Under the pieces are notes generated by a model. The model was not told where the DNA came from. It was given only the letters and a program-made list of their open reading frames with translations, and made no database searches. A program made the position numbers and the translations under genes. Source: Solirubrobacteraceae bacterium (GTDB lineage Bacteria; Actinomycetota; Thermoleophilia; Solirubrobacterales; Solirubrobacteraceae). From it: a stretch of 64,000 nt of DNA. Below, one piece after another: positions 9,765 to 19,039 of this stretch. Within the stretch, counting starts at the first letter, position 1. Every line of letters starts with the position of its first letter. The DNA lies in NCBI GenBank assembly GCA_036379935.1, contig DASVFT010000166.1, forward strand, positions 3,683 to 67,682, in the 5' to 3' direction.

Positions 9765-10113
9765 CGCCCAGGCCCACGCCGGGCGCCCGACGTGGGTTCG
9801 GCCCGCCATCCTCGTCGTGGGCCTCTTCGCGATCTGCCTCGTGGTCGCCAGCAGCTGCCAGCGCCGCCAGGTCCGGATCACCAAGGAGGCGGCCATCGTC
9901 ACCGCCACGCGGGCGGCCGACTTCCGTCCGCAGCGCACGCAGGTGCGGCTCGTGCGCCAGGGCCTCAATGGCCATCCGTTCTGGGCCATCTCGCTCTCCA
10001 TCCCGCGCAAGGGGGGCAACGGCTACCAGCGCGTGTCCGTCGCCCGGGTCGACGCCAACAGCGGCAAGCTCGTGGCCTTCACCGAAAACGCAAGCACGGA
10101 AGGAGCGCCATGA
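9736..10113 (+). CDS. membrane-anchored PepSY-like protein
   Basis: 125 aa from a TTG start, with TM PAILVVGLFAICLVVASS. This is followed by ITKEAAIVTATRAA...GHPFWAISL...VARVDANSGKLVAF, which resembles a PepSY fold. The stop overlaps the GS-like ATG (ATGA). The start codon is uncertain. Confidence 0.45.
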   Translation: MATSSVRPSSAQAHAGRPTWVRPAILVVGLFAICLVVASSCQRRQVRITKEAAIVTATRAADFRPQRTQVRLVRQGLNGHPFWAISLSIPRKGGNGYQRVSVARVDANSGKLVAFTENASTEGAP

Positions 10114-11501
10114 GCGCAGCACAGGGAAGCGAGCCGCTCGTCGCTCCGCAGACGGCGGATGAGGTCCGCAAGCTCGCGCGCGACGGCGAGATCGAGTTCC
10201 TCTTCGCGCAGTTCGTCGATATGCACGGCAAGCCGAACGCCAAGCTCGTTCCGGCGCACCATCTGGACGACCTGCTCGCCGATGGCGCGGGCTTCGCGGG
10301 CTTCGCGGCCGGAGACATCGGCCAGGGCCCGCACGACCCCGATCTCATCGCCATGCCCGACGTGCGCAGCTACACGCCGCTGCCCTGGCGGCCCGGAGTC
10401 GCCCGCTTCGCGTGCGACGTCACAGTGGAGGGCGAGGAATGGCCGTACTGCCCGCGGACGATCCTGCGCCACCAGCTCGAGCGGGCCGCGGCCTTGGGCT
10501 ACGAGTTCCGCATCGGGGCCGAGCTCGAATACTTCCTCGTGCGCCGGCGCGAGGACGGCTCACTCGAGCTCGCCGATCGCTTCGACACGCTGGAGCAGCC
10601 TTGCTACGACATGCGCGGCCTGACGCGCAACCTCGACTTCGTCTCCGCGGTCTCGCGCAACATCACGGCGCTGGGCTGGGACAACTACGCGACCGACCAC
10701 GAGGACGCCAACGGGCAGTTCGAGCAGAACTTCGAGTTCGACGACGCGCTCGTCACCTGCGATCGCGCCGTCTTCTTCCGCTACATGGTCGAGGCCATGG
10801 CCCAGGAGCGCGGCATGCTCGCGACGTTCATGCCCAAGCCGTTCGCCCACCTCACCGGCAACGGCTGTCACTTCCACATGAGCCTCTGGAAGGACGGCGC
10901 GAACGTCTTCGAGGCCGATCCGGCCGACGACCCCCGTGGCCTGGGGCTCTCCGAGCTCGGCTACCAGTTCGTCGCCGGCCTGAAGGCCCACGCCAAGGCC
11001 TACATCGCGGTGACCGCGCCGACCGTGAGCTCCTACAAGCGCCTGGTGGTGGGCGCCCCGACGAGCGGCGCGACCTGGGCGCCGGCCTACGGCCGCTACG
11101 GCTACAACAACCGCACGCAGATGCTCCGCATCCCCGGTCCTGGCCGCATCGAGGACCGCACGGTCGACGGATCATGCAACCCGTACCTGGCCGCCACGGC
11201 GGTGCTGGCGGCCGGGCTGGACGGCATCGAGCGCGGGCTGGACCCGGGGGACCCCAACTCGCTGAACCTCTACGAGACCGACGAGGCCCAGCGCAAGGAG
11301 CTCGGCATCGACGTGCTGCCGGCCAACCTGCTCGACGCGACCCGCGAGCTCGAGCGCTGCGACGTCCTGCGAGCCGCGCTCGGCCGGGGGCGCGACGAGG
11401 ACTACCTCGACTACTTCGTGCGCTGCAAGCGGCGCGAGTGGCAGCAGGCCCACGAGCAGATCACGCAATGGGAGCTGGACCGGTACCTGCAGCTGTTCTG
11501 A
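10110..11501 (+). CDS. glutamine synthetase family protein (gamma-glutamyl-amine ligase candidate: GmaS/PuuA/GlnA3-like)
   Basis: 463 aa from the ATG at 10110 (SD GGAAGGAG). Motifs: ELEYFL, TFMPKPFAHLTGNGCHFHMSLW, NRTQMLRIP, EDRTVDGSCNPYL. Confidence 0.9.
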   Translation: MSAAQGSEPLVAPQTADEVRKLARDGEIEFLFAQFVDMHGKPNAKLVPAHHLDDLLADGAGFAGFAAGDIGQGPHDPDLIAMPDVRSYTPLPWRPGVARFACDVTVEGEEWPYCPRTILRHQLERAAALGYEFRIGAELEYFLVRRREDGSLELADRFDTLEQPCYDMRGLTRNLDFVSAVSRNITALGWDNYATDHEDANGQFEQNFEFDDALVTCDRAVFFRYMVEAMAQERGMLATFMPKPFAHLTGNGCHFHMSLWKDGANVFEADPADDPRGLGLSELGYQFVAGLKAHAKAYIAVTAPTVSSYKRLVVGAPTSGATWAPAYGRYGYNNRTQMLRIPGPGRIEDRTVDGSCNPYLAATAVLAAGLDGIERGLDPGDPNSLNLYETDEAQRKELGIDVLPANLLDATRELERCDVLRAALGRGRDEDYLDYFVRCKRREWQQAHEQITQWELDRYLQLF

Positions 11502-12340
11502 GCGACGAGCAGGTCGAGGCCTTCCACCGCGACGGCTTCCTCGTCATCGAGGAGGGCTTCATCTCCGACCGCACGATCGAGGCGCTGCGCGAGCGCTTCG
11601 ACCGGTTGTTCGCGGGCGAGTACGCCTCCGGCATCCAGCCCGACGAGGTCAACTGGAGACCAGGCCGCGATCCCGAGGACAGGACGCGGCAGATCTGCAA
11701 CGGCTGGCGGGCGGACGACATGATCGCCGCACAGGTGCTCAGCGAGCCGACGGGGCGCATCGCCGCCCGACTGATGGGCTACGGCGGCGCTCGCATCCTG
11801 CAGGACAACTGCCTCTGGAAGCCGCCCGGCGCGCGCTCGCTCGGCATGCACCAGGACGGCTCCTACGCCGACTACCTGGTCCCGGCGGAGATGATCACCT
11901 GCTGGGTGGCGCTGGACGACACCCGCGCCGAGGGCGGGACGATCGAGTACGCGCGCGGCTCGCACCGCTGGCCCAAGGTCCCACCCGACCGCGGGAGCTT
12001 CCACGCCCCGGACGACTGGCTGGCGCCGCTGCACGCCGCCGCGCCCGAGGGTGAGGAGCCCGAGGTGGTGCCGGTCGTGGTCAAGGCCGGCGGCTGCTCG
12101 TTCCACCACTCGCTCACCTTCCACGGCTCCGGCCCCAACGAGGCGACCACGCACCGGCGCGCGATCGTCTCGCACCTGCTGCCGGCTCAGGCGCGCTTCC
12201 ACCCGACGAACGTCGACCCGATCTACTCGCGCTACCGGCGCCGCGGCGACCTGTCGATGGACGAGTCGTTCTTCCCGGTGCTCTGGGACGAGGCCGGCGG
12301 GCGCACGTCCTGGCTCGACGAGTTGCCCAACCTCTCGTAG
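11468..12340 (+). CDS. phytanoyl-CoA dioxygenase (PhyH) family Fe(II)/2-oxoglutarate oxygenase
   Basis: About 290 aa. It has MHQDGSY (HxD) and TFHGSGPN (distal His), plus LSDEQVEAFHRDGFLVIE at the N-terminus. The only canonical in-frame start is the ATG at 11468, which overlaps the GS-like gene by 34 nt. The start is uncertain. Confidence 0.75.
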   Translation: MGAGPVPAAVLSDEQVEAFHRDGFLVIEEGFISDRTIEALRERFDRLFAGEYASGIQPDEVNWRPGRDPEDRTRQICNGWRADDMIAAQVLSEPTGRIAARLMGYGGARILQDNCLWKPPGARSLGMHQDGSYADYLVPAEMITCWVALDDTRAEGGTIEYARGSHRWPKVPPDRGSFHAPDDWLAPLHAAAPEGEEPEVVPVVVKAGGCSFHHSLTFHGSGPNEATTHRRAIVSHLLPAQARFHPTNVDPIYSRYRRRGDLSMDESFFPVLWDEAGGRTSWLDELPNLS

Positions 12341-12915
12341 CGCCCGCCGTGGAACAGCAGCGGCGTGCCCGGATGCTGGCGCGCGTACTCGACGCGCCCG
12401 AGGAAGAGCGAGTGGTCGCCGCCCCAGTACGAGCGCTCCACACGCGCCACGAAGTGCGCGAGCGCGGCTTCGACCAAGGGCGTGTCGCGCACGAGCTCGA
12501 AGCGCGGCTCCGGAGCTCCGTTCGCCACCCGCCCCGCGAAGCGATCCGAGAGCGCGCTCTGGGTCTCGCTCAGCACGCTGACGCCGTACCGGCTCCCCTC
12601 GTAGAGCAGGCCACACATCTTGGTCCGCCGGTCGACGGACACCAGCACGAGCGGTGGGTCGAGCGACACCGACATGAAGGCGTTGGCCGTCATCCCGTGG
12701 ACCTTCTCGCCCTTGAGCGTCGTGATCACCGTGACGCCGGTGGTGAACATCCCCAGCGTGCGGCGTAGAGCGGCCGCGGGATCGTCGCCCTCGTCGGCGA
12801 GGTCCGGCCGCTGGACCTCGGCGACCTCGTCGAAGCGGGTCTCTCCGATGCCGTCCGGGCCGGCCCAGCTGAGCGGGAAGTCGAACTCCGCGGGCGGGCG
12901 GGCGGCGTCGCTCAT
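12232..12915 (-). CDS. flavin reductase family protein (NAD(P)H:flavin oxidoreductase)
   Basis: 227 aa with FTTGVTVITT...HGMTANAFMSVSLDPPLVLVSV. It starts 1 nt after the stop of the upstream Tdm-like gene. Its low-complexity C-terminal tail is antisense to the PhyH 3' end. Confidence 0.8.
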   Translation of the reverse strand: MSDAARPPAEFDFPLSWAGPDGIGETRFDEVAEVQRPDLADEGDDPAAALRRTLGMFTTGVTVITTLKGEKVHGMTANAFMSVSLDPPLVLVSVDRRTKMCGLLYEGSRYGVSVLSETQSALSDRFAGRVANGAPEPRFELVRDTPLVEAALAHFVARVERSYWGGDHSLFLGRVEYARQHPGTPLLFHGGRYERLGNSSSQDVRPPASSQSTGKNDSSIDRSPRRR

Positions 12916-12916
12916 G

Positions 12917-15244
12917 TCATGCGCGCGGGCGGGTCTTGTCCGGGTCGTAGAACGGGAAGCGGACGACCTTGGCCGCGATGCGCTTCTGGAGCCCGTCGAG
13001 CTTGCCCACCTCGACCTCCGTGCCCAGCTCCGCGTACTGCACGGCCATGCGGCACAGCGCGACGTTCTTGCGCAGCGTCGGGCTGCGGGTGCCGCTGGTG
13101 ACGACGCCCACGCGCTGGCGGCCCACGTAGACCTCGTCGCCGTGGCCGGCGGTCTCGTTGCCCTCGAGATCGAGACCGACGAGCCGGTGCTGGGGGTGCG
13201 CCGCGCGCTCGACGAGCGCGTCCTTGCCGACGAAGTCCTCCTCGCCGTCGAGCTTGACCGCGAAGCCGATGCCGGCCTCGAAGGGGTCGACCTGGTCGTC
13301 GAACTCGTACCCGGCGAAGATGAGCCCCGCCTCGATGCGGATCATGTCCAGCGCCTCGAGGCCGAGCGGCTTGAGGCCGTGCGGCTGGCCCGCCTCCCAG
13401 ATGGCGTCCCACACGGCCGGGCCGTCGTCGGGGTGGCAGAACACCTCGTAGCCGAGCTCGCCCGTGTAGCCGGTGCGCGAGACCACGACGGGGACGCCGT
13501 CGTAGCCCCCGATGCGCCCGACGAGGAAGCGGAACCACTTCAGCTCGTCGAGCGGGGGCTGCGTCGGGGGCGTCCAGATGATCTGCTGCATGATCGCGCG
13601 GCTCTCGGGCCCCTGGACCGCGAGGTTGTGCAGCTGATCGGTCGAGGGCTTGACGAAGGCCTTCAGCGCGAGGCGCTCGGCCAGCTCCTTGAGCCAGACG
13701 CCGTCGTAGGGGTCGCCGCCGACGAAGCGGAAGTTGTCCTCGCCGAGGCGGAAGACGGTGGCGTCGTCGATCATCCCTCCGGTCTCGTTGCACAATGCCG
13801 TGTAGACCACGTGGCCGACCGCCAGCCGGCGCGCGTCGCGCGTGATCGCGCGCTGGATCAGCGTCTCGGCGTCGGGGCCGAGGACCTCCCACTTGCGCAG
13901 GGGGGAGAGATCCATGACGACCGCCTTCTCGCGGCAGGCCCAGTACTCGGCGATGGCGCCCTCGTTGTTGTAGCAATGGGGCAGCCAGTAGCCGCGGTAC
14001 TCCACGAAGCTCTCGGTCAGCGCGCTCGTGCGCGGATGGAAGGTGGTCTCCTTGGTCAGCACGGGCTCTGCCTCCGGGGTGACGCGATGGGCGATCGCCG
14101 CCGAGAAGCGGTTCTCAGGCGAGTACACGCGCACGTGGACGTCGGTGAGCTCCCAACCGTTGGCCGGGTCGATGTCGTCCGGGCACGCCGACGAGGCGCA
14201 GACCAGGTCGGTCATCGCCCGCAGCAGCACGTAGTCGCCGGGGCGCGACCAGGGCTCGTCGAAGAAGAGGACGTTGCTCGCGTCGAACCCGGTGTTGTAG
14301 AAGAAGTTGAGCGCCTCCCATCCCTTGCGCTCGGCGATGCCGTAGGGCGTGACCTGGCCGTTGAAGTTCGCCGTGCAGTTGATGTGGCCCGGATAGCCCA
14401 TGTCCTCGTAGTACTTCGAGGTGCAGGCCAGCGCGAAGGTGTCGTGACGCCCGACGGTGTCGCGCACGACCTCGACGAGCGGGTCCATGTCGACGTCGTA
14501 GAACTTGCCCTGAAGGCCCGGGCTCGGATAGGCCTGGCCCATCAGCGTGCGGGTCGTGGCGCCGTCGAGGCCGCGCTCGAGCCCCTTCTCGAGCTTGGCG
14601 CGATGGAAGGCCAGGAAGTCCGAGCACTGGCGCCCCTGGACGTCGATGACCTGGATGTACTCGCCCCGGCGCACCTCGTAGGCGAGCGCGCTCGCGAGGT
14701 CGACGCGGAAGTCGAGGCGCGGCTCGGCCAGCGGCGGCGGCAGCTCCACGTCGGTCGCGGGCCGCGGCGCGGCGCGGCGGATCTCGATGACGAGCGCCGA
14801 CGCCGGCGGATCGCCGTCCACCACGCGGCCTCCGGGCGCCGCCACGATGACCAGCGCGTCGCGCTGGGCGAGGAAGGCCTCCGAGGCGCCGGGCGGGCTG
14901 TCGCGGCCGAAGAGCAGCAGCGCCTTCGCGTCATGCGGGGCCAGCCCGCGCGCGTGCAGGACGGCCAGGAAGGCGTCGTCGGCTCCGCTGCGCACGAGCT
15001 CGCGCAGCGCACCGGCCGGCGCGTCGGCGCTGGCACCCAGGGCGCCGGGATCGTGGCGCCCGTCGGGCGCGAGGACGGTCAGCTCGGCCGGCTGCCCGCC
15101 CTCGACGTCGATCACCGTCATGCGGTCGTCGCCGCGCAGCTCGACGACGGTGGCCGAGCCGGGCCTGACCCACCAGGTCTCCAGGCTCGGATCGGCCGGC
15201 CTACGCCCGGCGACGAGCGGTCGACTGCCGGTCTCGATCGCCAT
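12917..15244 (-). CDS. DUF1989 + GcvT aminomethyltransferase fusion protein (TMAO demethylase Tdm-type architecture)
   Basis: 775 aa. The N-terminal ~400 aa hold DUF1989-like segments (VIDVEGGQPAEL; YIQVIDVQGRQCSDFLAF; CTSKYYEDMGYPGHINCTANF; VCASSACPDD). The C-terminal ~370 aa are GcvT-like (VVMDLSPLRKWEVLGPDA, SRTGYTGELGYEVF, IEAGLIFAGYEF). Confidence 0.8.
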   Translation of the reverse strand: MAIETGSRPLVAGRRPADPSLETWWVRPGSATVVELRGDDRMTVIDVEGGQPAELTVLAPDGRHDPGALGASADAPAGALRELVRSGADDAFLAVLHARGLAPHDAKALLLFGRDSPPGASEAFLAQRDALVIVAAPGGRVVDGDPPASALVIEIRRAAPRPATDVELPPPLAEPRLDFRVDLASALAYEVRRGEYIQVIDVQGRQCSDFLAFHRAKLEKGLERGLDGATTRTLMGQAYPSPGLQGKFYDVDMDPLVEVVRDTVGRHDTFALACTSKYYEDMGYPGHINCTANFNGQVTPYGIAERKGWEALNFFYNTGFDASNVLFFDEPWSRPGDYVLLRAMTDLVCASSACPDDIDPANGWELTDVHVRVYSPENRFSAAIAHRVTPEAEPVLTKETTFHPRTSALTESFVEYRGYWLPHCYNNEGAIAEYWACREKAVVMDLSPLRKWEVLGPDAETLIQRAITRDARRLAVGHVVYTALCNETGGMIDDATVFRLGEDNFRFVGGDPYDGVWLKELAERLALKAFVKPSTDQLHNLAVQGPESRAIMQQIIWTPPTQPPLDELKWFRFLVGRIGGYDGVPVVVSRTGYTGELGYEVFCHPDDGPAVWDAIWEAGQPHGLKPLGLEALDMIRIEAGLIFAGYEFDDQVDPFEAGIGFAVKLDGEEDFVGKDALVERAAHPQHRLVGLDLEGNETAGHGDEVYVGRQRVGVVTSGTRSPTLRKNVALCRMAVQYAELGTEVEVGKLDGLQKRIAAKVVRFPFYDPDKTRPRA

Positions 15245-15255
15245 GGGCAGGAAGG

Positions 15256-15454
15256 CTAGATGACTGATTCCGCGGCCCGCGCGGCCAGATGGCCGTGCAC
15301 CGTGGATGCCGGGCGACGCGGGCCGAAGGGGGACAGTGGCAGAGCGGGCACCGACGGCCGGAGGCCGTTGGTCGGTGACCTCTTCGGACCGTGGCGATCC
15401 GGCGCCGCGGGGCGCGGACAGATGGTCGTGGGCGTCGTGGAATCAGTCATCTAG
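15256..15454. repeat. 199-bp imperfect palindrome with 16-bp perfect terminal inverted repeats (possible MITE-like element or long RNA hairpin)
   Basis: CTAGATGACTGATTCC at 15256-15271 is the exact reverse complement of GGAATCAGTCATCTAG at 15439-15454. The interior is partly self-complementary with indels, and the apex lies near 15355-15362. It fills the whole intergenic gap, and the right arm contains the ACAD-fold gene stop codon. Confidence 0.75.
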
Positions 15455-16854
15455 GCCTTTCCGGCGGGCTCGCGCGCCTCGTCCTTGTCCGCCTGGTCGG
15501 CGAGCTGCTTGGCGAGTTCGCGCTTGGCCGCGGCGTCGAGCTTCTTGATCTCGTTCTCGACCACGCGGCGGTTGTACGTCTGGTTCCAGTAGTCGAGCGA
15601 CTCGAAGCCCAGCAGCACCGCCTTGCCGACGAACTGGCGCAGCACCTCGTTGGTCGGGCCCATGACCCAGCCGGCCTTGGCGTCACGCAGGTAGCGCTCG
15701 ATCTCCATGTCGCGCTTGTAGCCCGACCCGCCGCAGGCGTGGAGCATCTTGTCCACCACATGGGCGGTGTTCTTGGCGGCCTCGAACTTGATCTGCCAGG
15801 CCCAGTGCAGGTAATCGGCGCGCGCCGTCTCGCCGGGCTTGAGCTCTCGCCGGTTGTCGTCGGTGGCGCGGTCCATCGCCTGCGCGACCGAGAAGACGAA
15901 CAGGCGCGAGGCGTTGGTGTCCATCACGGCCTCGCCGACGTAGTCCTGGATCGTCGGGTAGTCGGCCACGCGCATGCCGACGTCGACGTGGCGCTTGCGG
16001 GTGGTGTGGCGCTTGGCGATGTCGATCGCGCCCATCGCGATGCCGTTCCACACCGACGAGGAGCCGATGAGGAACCACGGGTCGACGGCCTCGTCGTTGG
16101 AGGCGGCGCCGTCGCCGATCGGCCCGACGATCTGGTCGCCGGGGATCTCGATGTTGTCGACCTCGATCGGGCCCGACTGGTTGCCGCGCAGGCCCAGCGC
16201 GTCCCACAAGGAGGGCTGGGACTTGACGTGCTCGCCGTCGATGACGAAGACGGACAGGTCGTCGTAGCCCTTGAAGTCGGGGCTCGTGGTCTGCACGACG
16301 TAGAAGTCCGCGAAGCCGCCCGACGTGGTCCACGACGCCTTCTTGCGCACCTTGAAGCCGCCGTTGGCGCGCTCGGCGCCCGACGAGAACGGGTACCAGA
16401 AGTGCGAGCCGGTCTCCGGGTCCGAGTACGACAGCGTGCCGATCTTGCACTCGTTGAGGGGGCGGATGTACTTGTCGACGAGCTCTGGCGTCGGGCGCAG
16501 CATGATCGTGGCCACGGCGCCGGTGTGCATGACGTAGCACATGGCCGTCGACGCGCAGCCGTAGCGCGCCAGCGTCTCGCAGGTCATGCAGAAGGCGACG
16601 TGGTTCTCGCCCAGGCCGCCGTACTCCTCGGGCACGATGAGCGACAGGAAGCCGTTCTCGGCCAGGATCTCGAAGTTGCGCCGCGGGAAGAGCAGCTCGT
16701 CATCCGAGCGCTTGGCGTTGGCACGCAGCTCCTGCTCGCAGAGCTCGATGAGCTTCGTCCGCAGCTCCTGCTGGCGTTCCGTGAGGACCCAGTCGGGGTC
16801 CCAGTCGTATCCGAGCCCCCAGAAGGGCTCTCCTCCCCACGCCTTATCCGCCAT
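15451..16854 (-). CDS. acyl-CoA dehydrogenase-fold flavoprotein (possible two-component monooxygenase/oxidase component)
   Basis: 467 aa from the ATG at 16854 (SD GAGGAGAGG). It carries ALGLRGNQSG and ACGGSGYKRDMEIERYLRDAKAG ACAD-type motifs. About 60 aa form a charged C-terminal extension. Confidence 0.8.
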   Translation of the reverse strand: MADKAWGGEPFWGLGYDWDPDWVLTERQQELRTKLIELCEQELRANAKRSDDELLFPRRNFEILAENGFLSLIVPEEYGGLGENHVAFCMTCETLARYGCASTAMCYVMHTGAVATIMLRPTPELVDKYIRPLNECKIGTLSYSDPETGSHFWYPFSSGAERANGGFKVRKKASWTTSGGFADFYVVQTTSPDFKGYDDLSVFVIDGEHVKSQPSLWDALGLRGNQSGPIEVDNIEIPGDQIVGPIGDGAASNDEAVDPWFLIGSSSVWNGIAMGAIDIAKRHTTRKRHVDVGMRVADYPTIQDYVGEAVMDTNASRLFVFSVAQAMDRATDDNRRELKPGETARADYLHWAWQIKFEAAKNTAHVVDKMLHACGGSGYKRDMEIERYLRDAKAGWVMGPTNEVLRQFVGKAVLLGFESLDYWNQTYNRRVVENEIKKLDAAAKRELAKQLADQADKDEAREPAGKA

Positions 16855-16895: not shown

Positions 16896-17013
16896 AGAGC
16901 AACTTCTACCGCTCCCAGACTCGCCTGTCCATCCCGTGCGAGGTGAACGACGCATGGCACGCCGCCGTTGACGCTGTCCGGGGGGCGTGGTAGAAGACGC
17001 TCTGCCCGGCCGT

Positions 17014-18631: not shown

Positions 18632-19039
18632 CTACTGCGGGCGCAGCTCCCAGCGGGGCAGGTGGGCGATGGCCTGCCGGTAGCGCCGTCGGTGGACGGG
18701 CCGCACGAAGACGAACCAGATCATCATCGCCATCGGCAGCAGCACGAACACGTTGAAGATGTTGCCGGTGAGCGTGAAGAAGATCGCCAGCGCGGCGACG
18801 ACCATGCCGAGGGCGATCGGCACCATGCGGAAGCGCCACTGGAGCCGCCGGATGGCCTCGTACTGCTCGGCCGGGATCTGGCGCGTGTCCCAGCGCTTGC
18901 CGCAGCGCTCGCACCGCCACTCCTCCCCGTAGCGCAGGTCGCGCTTGGAGCCGCACTCGCAGGTGACCGCGATCGGCGGGCCGCGCAGGACCGTGCCCGG
19001 CTGCTCGCGGCCGAGGCGCTCGCGCGGCCTTACGTCCAC
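18632..19039 (-). CDS. zinc-ribbon membrane protein (C-x-C...C-x2-C followed by 2 TM)
   Basis: VTCECGSKRDLRYGEEWRCERCGKRWD is followed by MVPIALGMVVAALAIFFTL and FNVFVLLPMAMMIWFVFV. It is the last gene of the operon. The only upstream in-frame start is the GTG at 19039, which overlaps the preceding stop. The start is uncertain. Confidence 0.5.
   Translation of the reverse strand: MDVRPRERLGREQPGTVLRGPPIAVTCECGSKRDLRYGEEWRCERCGKRWDTRQIPAEQYEAIRRLQWRFRMVPIALGMVVAALAIFFTLTGNIFNVFVLLPMAMMIWFVFVRPVHRRRYRQAIAHLPRWELRPQ

Follow-up and report, generated by a model that had tools for sequence, protein, structure and literature searches.

We analysed a 64,000-nt stretch of a Solirubrobacteraceae genome (contig DASVFT010000166.1), hereinafter the window, in whose numbering all coordinates below are given. 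Its G+C content is about 72% and its nearest relatives are metagenome-assembled genomes of the Thermoleophilaceae. Three genes follow one another head to tail on its minus strand, coding in turn for a flavoprotein with the acyl-CoA dehydrogenase (ACAD) fold, the trimethylamine N-oxide (TMAO) demethylase Tdm and a flavin reductase of the PF01613 family. An earlier note on this DNA had singled out the first and the last of these, a 467-aa and a 227-aa protein encoded on the same strand with only a "Tdm-like" gene between them, as a candidate two-component amine oxygenase, and the open reading frames indeed lie as it described. The features of the locus that figure in the following are:

15451-16854, minus strand: ACAD-fold flavoprotein without the catalytic Glu, 467 aa, with Pfam ACAD domains; proposed oxygenase component
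12917-15244, minus strand: TMAO demethylase Tdm, 775 aa, with DUF1989 and GcvT regions (NF053776, PF09347, PF01571, PF08669)
12232-12915, minus strand: NAD(P)H:flavin reductase, 227 aa, with PF01613 over residues 55-196; proposed reductase component
15256-15454, no strand: 199-bp palindromic repeat resembling a miniature inverted-repeat transposable element (MITE), between the ACAD-like gene and tdm, recognised by its RNA fold and its copies in the genome
17012-18616, plus strand: APC-family permease, divergent from the ACAD-like gene (PF13520, PF00324)
11495-12340, plus strand: PhyH-family Fe(II)/2-oxoglutarate dioxygenase (PF05721, 94.7 bits); candidate dimethylamine demethylase
9792-11501, plus strand: glutamine synthetase (GS)-like ligase of the GmaS type (PF00120, 321 bits)

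The kinship of the middle gene to Tdm stands, and it is more than merely Tdm-like, as it passes the NF053776 equivalog with 1187.8 bits against a cut-off of 1100. The ATG of the reductase lies 1 nt after the tdm stop and the reductase is translationally coupled to tdm. For the ACAD-fold protein we chose the ATG that gives 467 aa over a TTG at 16902, which would yield 483 aa, because its homologues are 466-468 aa long. The surroundings constitute a methylamine island comprising two GS-like ligases, an Amt transporter, the APC permease, DAO-family flavoproteins, the glutamate-synthase-like GATase, GXGXG and FMN subunits of an N-methylglutamate synthase, and regulators of the PucR and GntR families. 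The GS-like ligase listed above is kept in related loci and belongs to the methylamine/N-methylglutamate module; its stop is overlapped by the PhyH gene, which is convergent with the reductase gene. The APC permease, likely the importer of the amine substrate, has kept its place next to the ACAD-like gene in the majority of Thermoleophilia loci and in Labrys; of the three loci of a basal clade devoid of Tdm, that of G069 alone has it there. No Etf or fatty-acid genes were seen near the ACAD-like gene, the identified neighbours of which are amine-catabolic.

The ACAD-fold protein has lost the dehydrogenase base

The ACAD-fold protein matches the Pfam models Acyl-CoA_dh_N, _M, _1 and _2. Its ACAD core ends at around residue 415-430 and is followed by a charged, helical extension of about 40-50 aa; the earlier note had recognised this extension and its charged character, put its length at about 60 aa, and made no mention of a further extension of about 25 aa at the N-terminus. 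Both extensions are kept across the family. None of the NCBIfam equivalogs reaches its cut-off with this protein: the best is that of Rv1679/FadE16 (NF049984), with 218 bits against 600, and the curated models for the group-D flavin monooxygenases DszC, SfnB, HsaA and HpaH-C2 give 44-61 bits against cut-offs of 430-850 (DszC, 47 against 850; SfnB, 61 against 431). A sequence search of the PDB recovers true short-chain ACADs as the best matches (E ~1e-35, ~27% identity). An AlphaFold2 model built from a 95-sequence family alignment, with a mean predicted local distance difference test score (pLDDT) of 91.9, has the ACAD fold, and all 50 of its top PDB neighbours in a Foldseek search are true ACADs (TM-score ~0.9 on the target, 20-27% identity).

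Alignments with the PDB sequences reveal that the catalytic YEGT of true ACADs is MGPT in this protein. The position of the catalytic Glu 376 of medium-chain acyl-CoA dehydrogenase (MCAD) is occupied by Gly399 and the alternative position, 254 in isovaleryl-CoA dehydrogenase (IVD), by Trp260; the catalytic Glu, the loss of which the earlier note had named as a point to check, is absent at both. The replacement is a property of the family: in the 95-sequence alignment the loop residues Met398 and Pro400 do not vary, the IVD-type position always carries a hydrophobic residue, Trp or another, and the Glu-less loop is present in all five divergent homologues that we read residue by residue. It is also common, as VMAPT or IMGPT, to many of the nearest relatives at 30-36% identity. 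The motifs that bind flavin adenine dinucleotide (FAD) are retained, namely GGxGY (here GGSGY), RDAK, the WTT loop and the Thr equivalent to T168 of MCAD. Trp, Tyr and His residues are invariant as well, among them W153, H151, W217, W351 and W396, and might line a cation-pi pocket above the flavin. The protein is an ACAD scaffold with its flavin site intact and its dehydrogenase base lost.

Across the Thermoleophilia the orthologues are 82-95% identical. In a quick maximum-likelihood tree, the support values of which are SH-aLRT only, a long branch with full support divides the family from generic ACADs; clades linked to Tdm or methylamine genes are found at the base of the family, with fusion proteins from crustaceans and further clades nested inside. 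These further clades adjoin a Cupin_7 gene, or genes resembling dimethylglycine (DMG) dehydrogenase or trimethylamine dehydrogenase (TMADH). The family as a whole seems to be associated with amine catabolism.

Four loci of the distant clades (L088, L095, L126 and L128) share a layout in which the Cupin_7 (ChrR-like) gene comes 3' of the family gene; genes resembling DMG dehydrogenase (DAO + GcvT) or TMADH (Oxidored_FMN + Pyr_redox_2) lie in the vicinity, as does another PhyH gene.

Flavin reductases adjacent to and fused with the family

The PF01613 domain of the reductase scores 117.5 bits against a gathering threshold of 27. The protein is akin to StyB and HpaC, although it stays below the equivalog cut-off of 200 for both (125 and 119 bits, respectively). 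Its N-terminal extension, given as about 50 aa in the earlier note, measures 54 aa and is kept in 53 of 83 homologues, among which the tail past about residue 200 is not conserved. In the 80 loci closest to that of the window, the reductase gene lies 3' of tdm in the same orientation or no more than a few kb away. It is adjacent or within ~7 kb in most loci from Thermoleophilia and Hyphomicrobiales, and in Alphaproteobacteria it is found directly between the ACAD-like gene and tdm; in the cyanobacterial loci we found no reductase within 9 kb. Homologues of the ACAD-fold protein from crab, shrimp and barnacle possess a C-terminal FNR-type reductase domain (PF00970 + PF00175), which is unrelated to PF01613. 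That two unrelated types of reductase have been joined to it, one by adjacency and the other by fusion, argues that the ACAD-fold domain consumes reducing equivalents, which is a hallmark of a monooxygenase rather than a dehydrogenase.

The crustacean fusions (P0128, P0288, P0297, P0298 and P0305) are 770-800 aa long and are encoded on Mb-scale genome scaffolds. Their reductase domain is of the FNR/cytochrome-b5-reductase-like kind, and their annotations read 'ACAD9-like' or 'NADH-cytochrome b5 reductase 1'. In the tree they are nearer the clades without linkage to Tdm. Decapods and barnacles accumulate TMAO.

Genomic linkage to Tdm

The arrangement of the three genes is found again in almost every one of the 80 closest loci and is therefore not a product of chance. 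Tdm is present in 20 of 251 sampled Thermoleophilia genomes, and in every one of the 20 it is adjoined by an orthologue of the ACAD-like gene (79-89% identity); conversely, Tdm is encoded by 20 of the 21 genomes, including that of the window, with an orthologue at least 79% identical. Among relatives the ACAD-like protein is the more conserved of the two, with 83-94% identity against 60-89% for Tdm. Of 251 sampled Hyphomicrobiales, 56 have Tdm and eight have the ACAD-like gene; all eight are Tdm-positive, with the two genes adjacent in seven, and the ACAD-like gene occurs in none of the 195 Tdm-negative genomes (Fisher p = 4e-6, with relatives that are not independent). Members of the family from cyanobacteria, acidobacteria and other alphaproteobacteria have Tdm either adjacent or elsewhere in the genome, and in five more genomes Tdm is not found within 9 kb of the ACAD-like gene but is encoded elsewhere. 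The ACAD-like gene and the reductase are genetically locked to tdm in four phyla.

The Tdm proteins of three cyanobacteria (G255, G258 and G259) are about 640 aa long and match the Tdm model from position 107-152 on, with scores of 770-790 bits that fall under the 1100-bit equivalog cut-off. They appear to represent an N-terminally truncated variant.

Distribution of Tmm and the step before Tdm

TMAO is produced from trimethylamine (TMA) by the monooxygenase Tmm, a flavin monooxygenase (FMO) of class B. All counts of Tmm given here rest on a screen with a bona fide Tmm protein as query at E<=1e-20. In a six-frame search, a genuine bacterial Tmm beside Tdm scores ~110 + 40 bits on PF00743, in two pieces; the PF00743 matches of 250-360 bits in Thermoleophilia and Hyphomicrobiales represent another type of FMO, unlinked to Tdm. 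High-scoring PF00743 genes from 30 Thermoleophilia were considered as potential Tmm genes and rejected as unrelated to Tdm, given that only three of those genomes have Tdm and that the two are never adjacent.

The genome to which the window belongs is 94.5% complete. It yielded no Tmm in the screen, with a 46-bit partial match being all that PF00743 recovers, and neither DmmC (PF11927) nor DmmA-like_C (PF22289), components of the dimethylamine (DMA) monooxygenase Dmm, was found in it; the lack of an FMO-type Tmm and of Dmm that the earlier note had pointed out for the island thus holds for the whole genome. Tmm homologues are absent from all 24 Thermoleophilia screened, the window's own genome included, as well as from a Xanthobacter (G251), G355, G422, G469 and six other carriers. 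Tmm is lacking in 30 of the 36 examined genomes that have both the ACAD-like gene and Tdm, all 20 Thermoleophilia among them. Among Tdm-positive Hyphomicrobiales, it is found in 40 of 48 genomes without the ACAD-like gene as against four of eight with it (p = 0.055).

The Hyphomicrobiales show the gap within a single operon. In Labrys sp. KNU-23 (G252) the order is permease, ACAD-like gene, reductase, Tdm, DmmD, DmmA, DmmB and DmmC; the arrangement in Xanthobacter sp. VTT E-85241 (G251) is the same, and in five further sampled members of the order (from G355, G390, G422, G452, G480 and G506, Labrys aside) DmmC is found a few kb away from Tdm and the ACAD-like gene. Three of these genomes, the Xanthobacter, G355 and G422, have an operon of ACAD-like gene, (reductase,) Tdm and DmmABC while lacking a Tmm homologue. 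Given Tdm and Dmm, the conversion of TMA to TMAO is the sole step between TMA and methylamine to remain unassigned.

Demethylation of dimethylamine

DmmC is lacking in 27 of the 36 genomes with both the ACAD-like gene and Tdm, namely our own and 26 others, and present in the remaining nine. An orthologue of the PhyH-family dioxygenase is encoded by 19 of the 27 DmmC-negative genomes as against none of the nine DmmC-positive ones (p = 2.6e-4, a significance that is overstated as the genomes are related), such that Dmm or PhyH occurs in 28 of the 36 carriers. The PhyH orthologue often directly adjoins tdm. These patterns suggest that the PhyH dioxygenase may be an alternative DMA demethylase. 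Being complementary to DmmC, PhyH is the better candidate for the demethylation of DMA, which leaves the N-oxygenation of TMA for the ACAD-like protein and the reductase.

A candidate trimethylamine N-oxygenase and its rivals

From the fold, the lost base, the FAD motifs, the adjacency to or fusion with reductases, the co-occurrence with Tdm and the operon structure, we infer that the ACAD-fold protein works with the PF01613 reductase as a two-component TMA N-oxygenase dependent on reduced flavin, which would stand in for Tmm, and we put the probability of this at roughly 60%; the dependence on O2, the N-oxygenation chemistry and TMA as the substrate are all predictions from these data. The earlier note had suggested a two-component amine oxygenase that fills a missing oxidation step, and this idea gains support from the lost Glu, the reductase linkage, the co-occurrence with Tdm and the hole in the pathway.

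In such a system, the reductase would reduce FAD or FMN with NAD(P)H, and the ACAD-fold protein, without the Glu and with its flavin site kept, would take up the reduced flavin and O2 to form a C4a-hydroperoxyflavin. Oxygen from this intermediate would be transferred to the nucleophilic nitrogen of TMA, probably imported by the APC permease, to give TMAO. Tdm, encoded immediately downstream, would then convert TMAO to DMA and methylene-tetrahydrofolate. Demethylation of the DMA would fall to DmmABC in some lineages, and in the genome of the window probably to the PhyH dioxygenase, with the resulting monomethylamine being passed to the products of the neighbouring GmaS and N-methylglutamate genes.

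Several observations weigh against this proposal. The closest solved structures, both by Foldseek and by sequence, are genuine ACADs: the structural comparison of group-D enzymes against true ACADs that the earlier note had put forward as a check came out on the side of the latter, with no group-D oxygenase among the top 50 matches. The fully kept FAD motifs could speak for a tightly bound cofactor, and not for a diffusible reduced flavin. Labrys sp. KNU-23 and four related Hyphomicrobiales possess the ACAD operon and, elsewhere, a Tmm with 64% identity; a partial Tmm match is present in one cyanobacterial carrier. Tmm and the ACAD-fold system are not strictly alternative. In eight of the genomes with the ACAD-like gene and Tdm we found neither DmmC nor a PhyH orthologue. 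Finally, a basal Thermoleophilia clade at 60-64% identity (G033, G069 and G159) has no Tdm anywhere in the genome. Its loci (L084 in G069, L085 in G159 and L086 in G033) place the ACAD-like gene by GS-like, GATase and GltS genes (GmaS/Mgs); in G069 these are joined by the permease and a regulator of the PucR family, in G159 by DAO and PF01613 genes. Without Tdm, TMAO would be a dead end in these organisms and a pure TMA oxygenase makes little sense; in this clade the substrate of the enzyme may be DMA or a different amine.

The main rival is a role in oxidising DMA, alone or along with TMA. In its simpler form the pair would oxidise DMA, either released by Tdm or imported, as DmmABC does, yielding monomethylamine and formaldehyde, e.g. 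by N-hydroxylation, dehydration and hydrolysis. This would suit the lack of DmmC in our genome and 26 other carriers, the Alphaproteobacteria in which the ACAD-like gene directly follows the mgs genes, and the basal clade, where the gene still lies beside those for GmaS and N-methylglutamate synthase in keeping with a direct conversion of DMA to monomethylamine. However, in eight Hyphomicrobiales (Labrys G252 included) it shares one operon with dmmABC, where such an activity would be redundant and the oxidation of TMA would be left unassigned; moreover, it is the PhyH orthologue, and not the ACAD-like gene, whose distribution is complementary to that of DmmC. The chemistry also speaks against it, since flavin hydroperoxides N-oxygenate amines and, to our knowledge, the conversion of a dialkylhydroxylamine to a primary amine is not established. 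We accordingly regard this role as unlikely.

Less probable still is a methylamine N-oxygenase of broad specificity that takes TMA as well as DMA, with Tdm demethylating both products and thereby taking TMA to monomethylamine in the absence of Dmm. It would account for the eight carriers with neither DmmC nor PhyH, and the FMO-type Tmm itself reportedly accepts DMA in vitro, as attributed to Chen et al. in 2011; yet N,N-dimethylhydroxylamine is not known as a substrate of Tdm, the Tdm-less basal clade is left unexplained, and Dmm or PhyH accompanies the system in most of its carriers. Equally improbable in our view is a flavin dehydrogenase or oxidase acting on an acyl-CoA or some other metabolite, with the reductase serving, for instance, in iron reduction for Tdm: while the nearest neighbours in sequence and structure are true ACADs, the FAD motifs are intact and oxidases with the ACAD fold exist (e.g. 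nitroalkane oxidase), the whole family and its closest relatives without the Glu have lost both base positions, flavin reductases of two unrelated kinds go with the protein, one adjacent and one fused, and neither Etf nor fatty-acid genes were seen nearby, the identified neighbours being amine-catabolic. A role as a fatty-acid ACAD was rejected in view of the lost base together with the conserved amine context.

A more far-reaching version of the TMA N-oxygenase proposal, which we advance tentatively and consider rather doubtful as a whole, is that the family constitutes an unrecognised and widespread class of TMA monooxygenases in Thermoleophilia, Cyanobacteria, Alphaproteobacteria and Acidobacteriota, with the decapod and barnacle fusions being a self-sufficient TMAO synthase of the animals themselves, and that together with PhyH it would provide a full alternative pathway from TMA to methylamine.

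Relationship to known flavoenzymes

The pair is conserved and undescribed, belonging neither to any curated group-D family nor to the true ACADs, and our literature searches found no published description of an ACAD-fold enzyme linked to Tdm. It is best seen as a probable variant of the ACAD-fold two-component monooxygenases. The isobutylamine N-hydroxylase/reductase pair VlmH/VlmR and the nitrososynthases KijD3, ORF36 and DnmZ resemble it in having an ACAD fold without the dehydrogenase base, and resemble its proposed function in using an external flavin reductase to oxygenate an amine nitrogen. DnmZ is a detectable relative of the ACAD-fold protein in the PDB (E = 6e-12), although short-chain ACADs are closer (E = 1e-35). 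These enzymes differ in acting on primary amines in secondary metabolism, whereas the family described here is catabolic, linked to Tdm and equipped with N- and C-terminal extensions of its own.

DszC has a His in the loop where the ACAD-like family has Met-Gly-Pro. DszC/DszD and the dimethyl sulfide (DMS) and dimethyl sulfoxide (DMSO) monooxygenases of Acinetobacter baylyi share the two-component ACAD-fold organisation, with the DszC gene lying beside that of its own flavin reductase, but oxidise sulfur and not nitrogen. As the nearest precedent for the proposed enzyme, ACAD-fold two-component monooxygenases have been reported to oxidise DMS and DMSO, a heteroatom chemistry that is also performed by Tmm, and the group-D DMS/DMSO monooxygenases of A. 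baylyi to share a single reductase, MsuE (PMC13352529).

Tmm resembles the ACAD-fold protein in the reaction proposed for the latter and in the position of its gene immediately upstream of tdm. The two are not homologous, Tmm being a single-component NADPH/FAD enzyme with a Rossmann fold as opposed to an ACAD fold with a separate reductase. With true ACADs, such as short-chain ACAD and cyclohex-1-ene-1-carboxyl-CoA dehydrogenase (7P9X), the protein shares the fold and the FAD-binding motifs; it is distinguished from them by the loss of Glu at both positions, the additional terminal extensions, scores below every equivalog cut-off and the amine context. Rv1679/FadE16, for which we know of no established function, has the best-scoring curated model, and the shortfall noted above shows that the ACAD-fold protein is not a member of that family.

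Implications for trimethylamine turnover

The turnover of TMA and TMAO is now mapped in genomes and metagenomes by means of tmm, tdm and dmm. If the Tmm reaction is performed by the ACAD-fold enzyme, the Thermoleophilia of soil and freshwater, filamentous cyanobacteria and several Alphaproteobacteria would be overlooked oxidisers of TMA, and we would have a clean case of a class-B FMO giving way to a non-homologous two-component system with the ACAD fold. Should the full alternative pathway exist, surveys with tmm and dmm as markers would miss a route from TMA to methylamine. The family also offers a first functional handle on a large Glu-less clade of ACAD-like proteins that are routinely annotated as acyl-CoA dehydrogenases. 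The mutual exclusivity of PhyH and Dmm provides a candidate for the bottleneck step at DMA, and the crustacean fusions suggest one for TMAO synthesis in invertebrates.

Minor features of the locus

The ACAD-like gene and tdm are separated by a gap of only 20-70 bp in relatives. In the window the gap holds the 199-bp palindrome, which has a predicted RNA fold of -111 kcal/mol (z = -5.4) and recurs around 15 times on other contigs of the genome, with the copies being 80-97% identical. Its structure and copies suggest a MITE-like repeat that has inserted into the operon.

On the far side of the APC permease, a small zinc-ribbon protein (18632-19039, minus strand) is co-conserved with the permease beside the ACAD-like gene in 51 related loci, at 30-77% identity by tblastn, the Tdm-less clade included.

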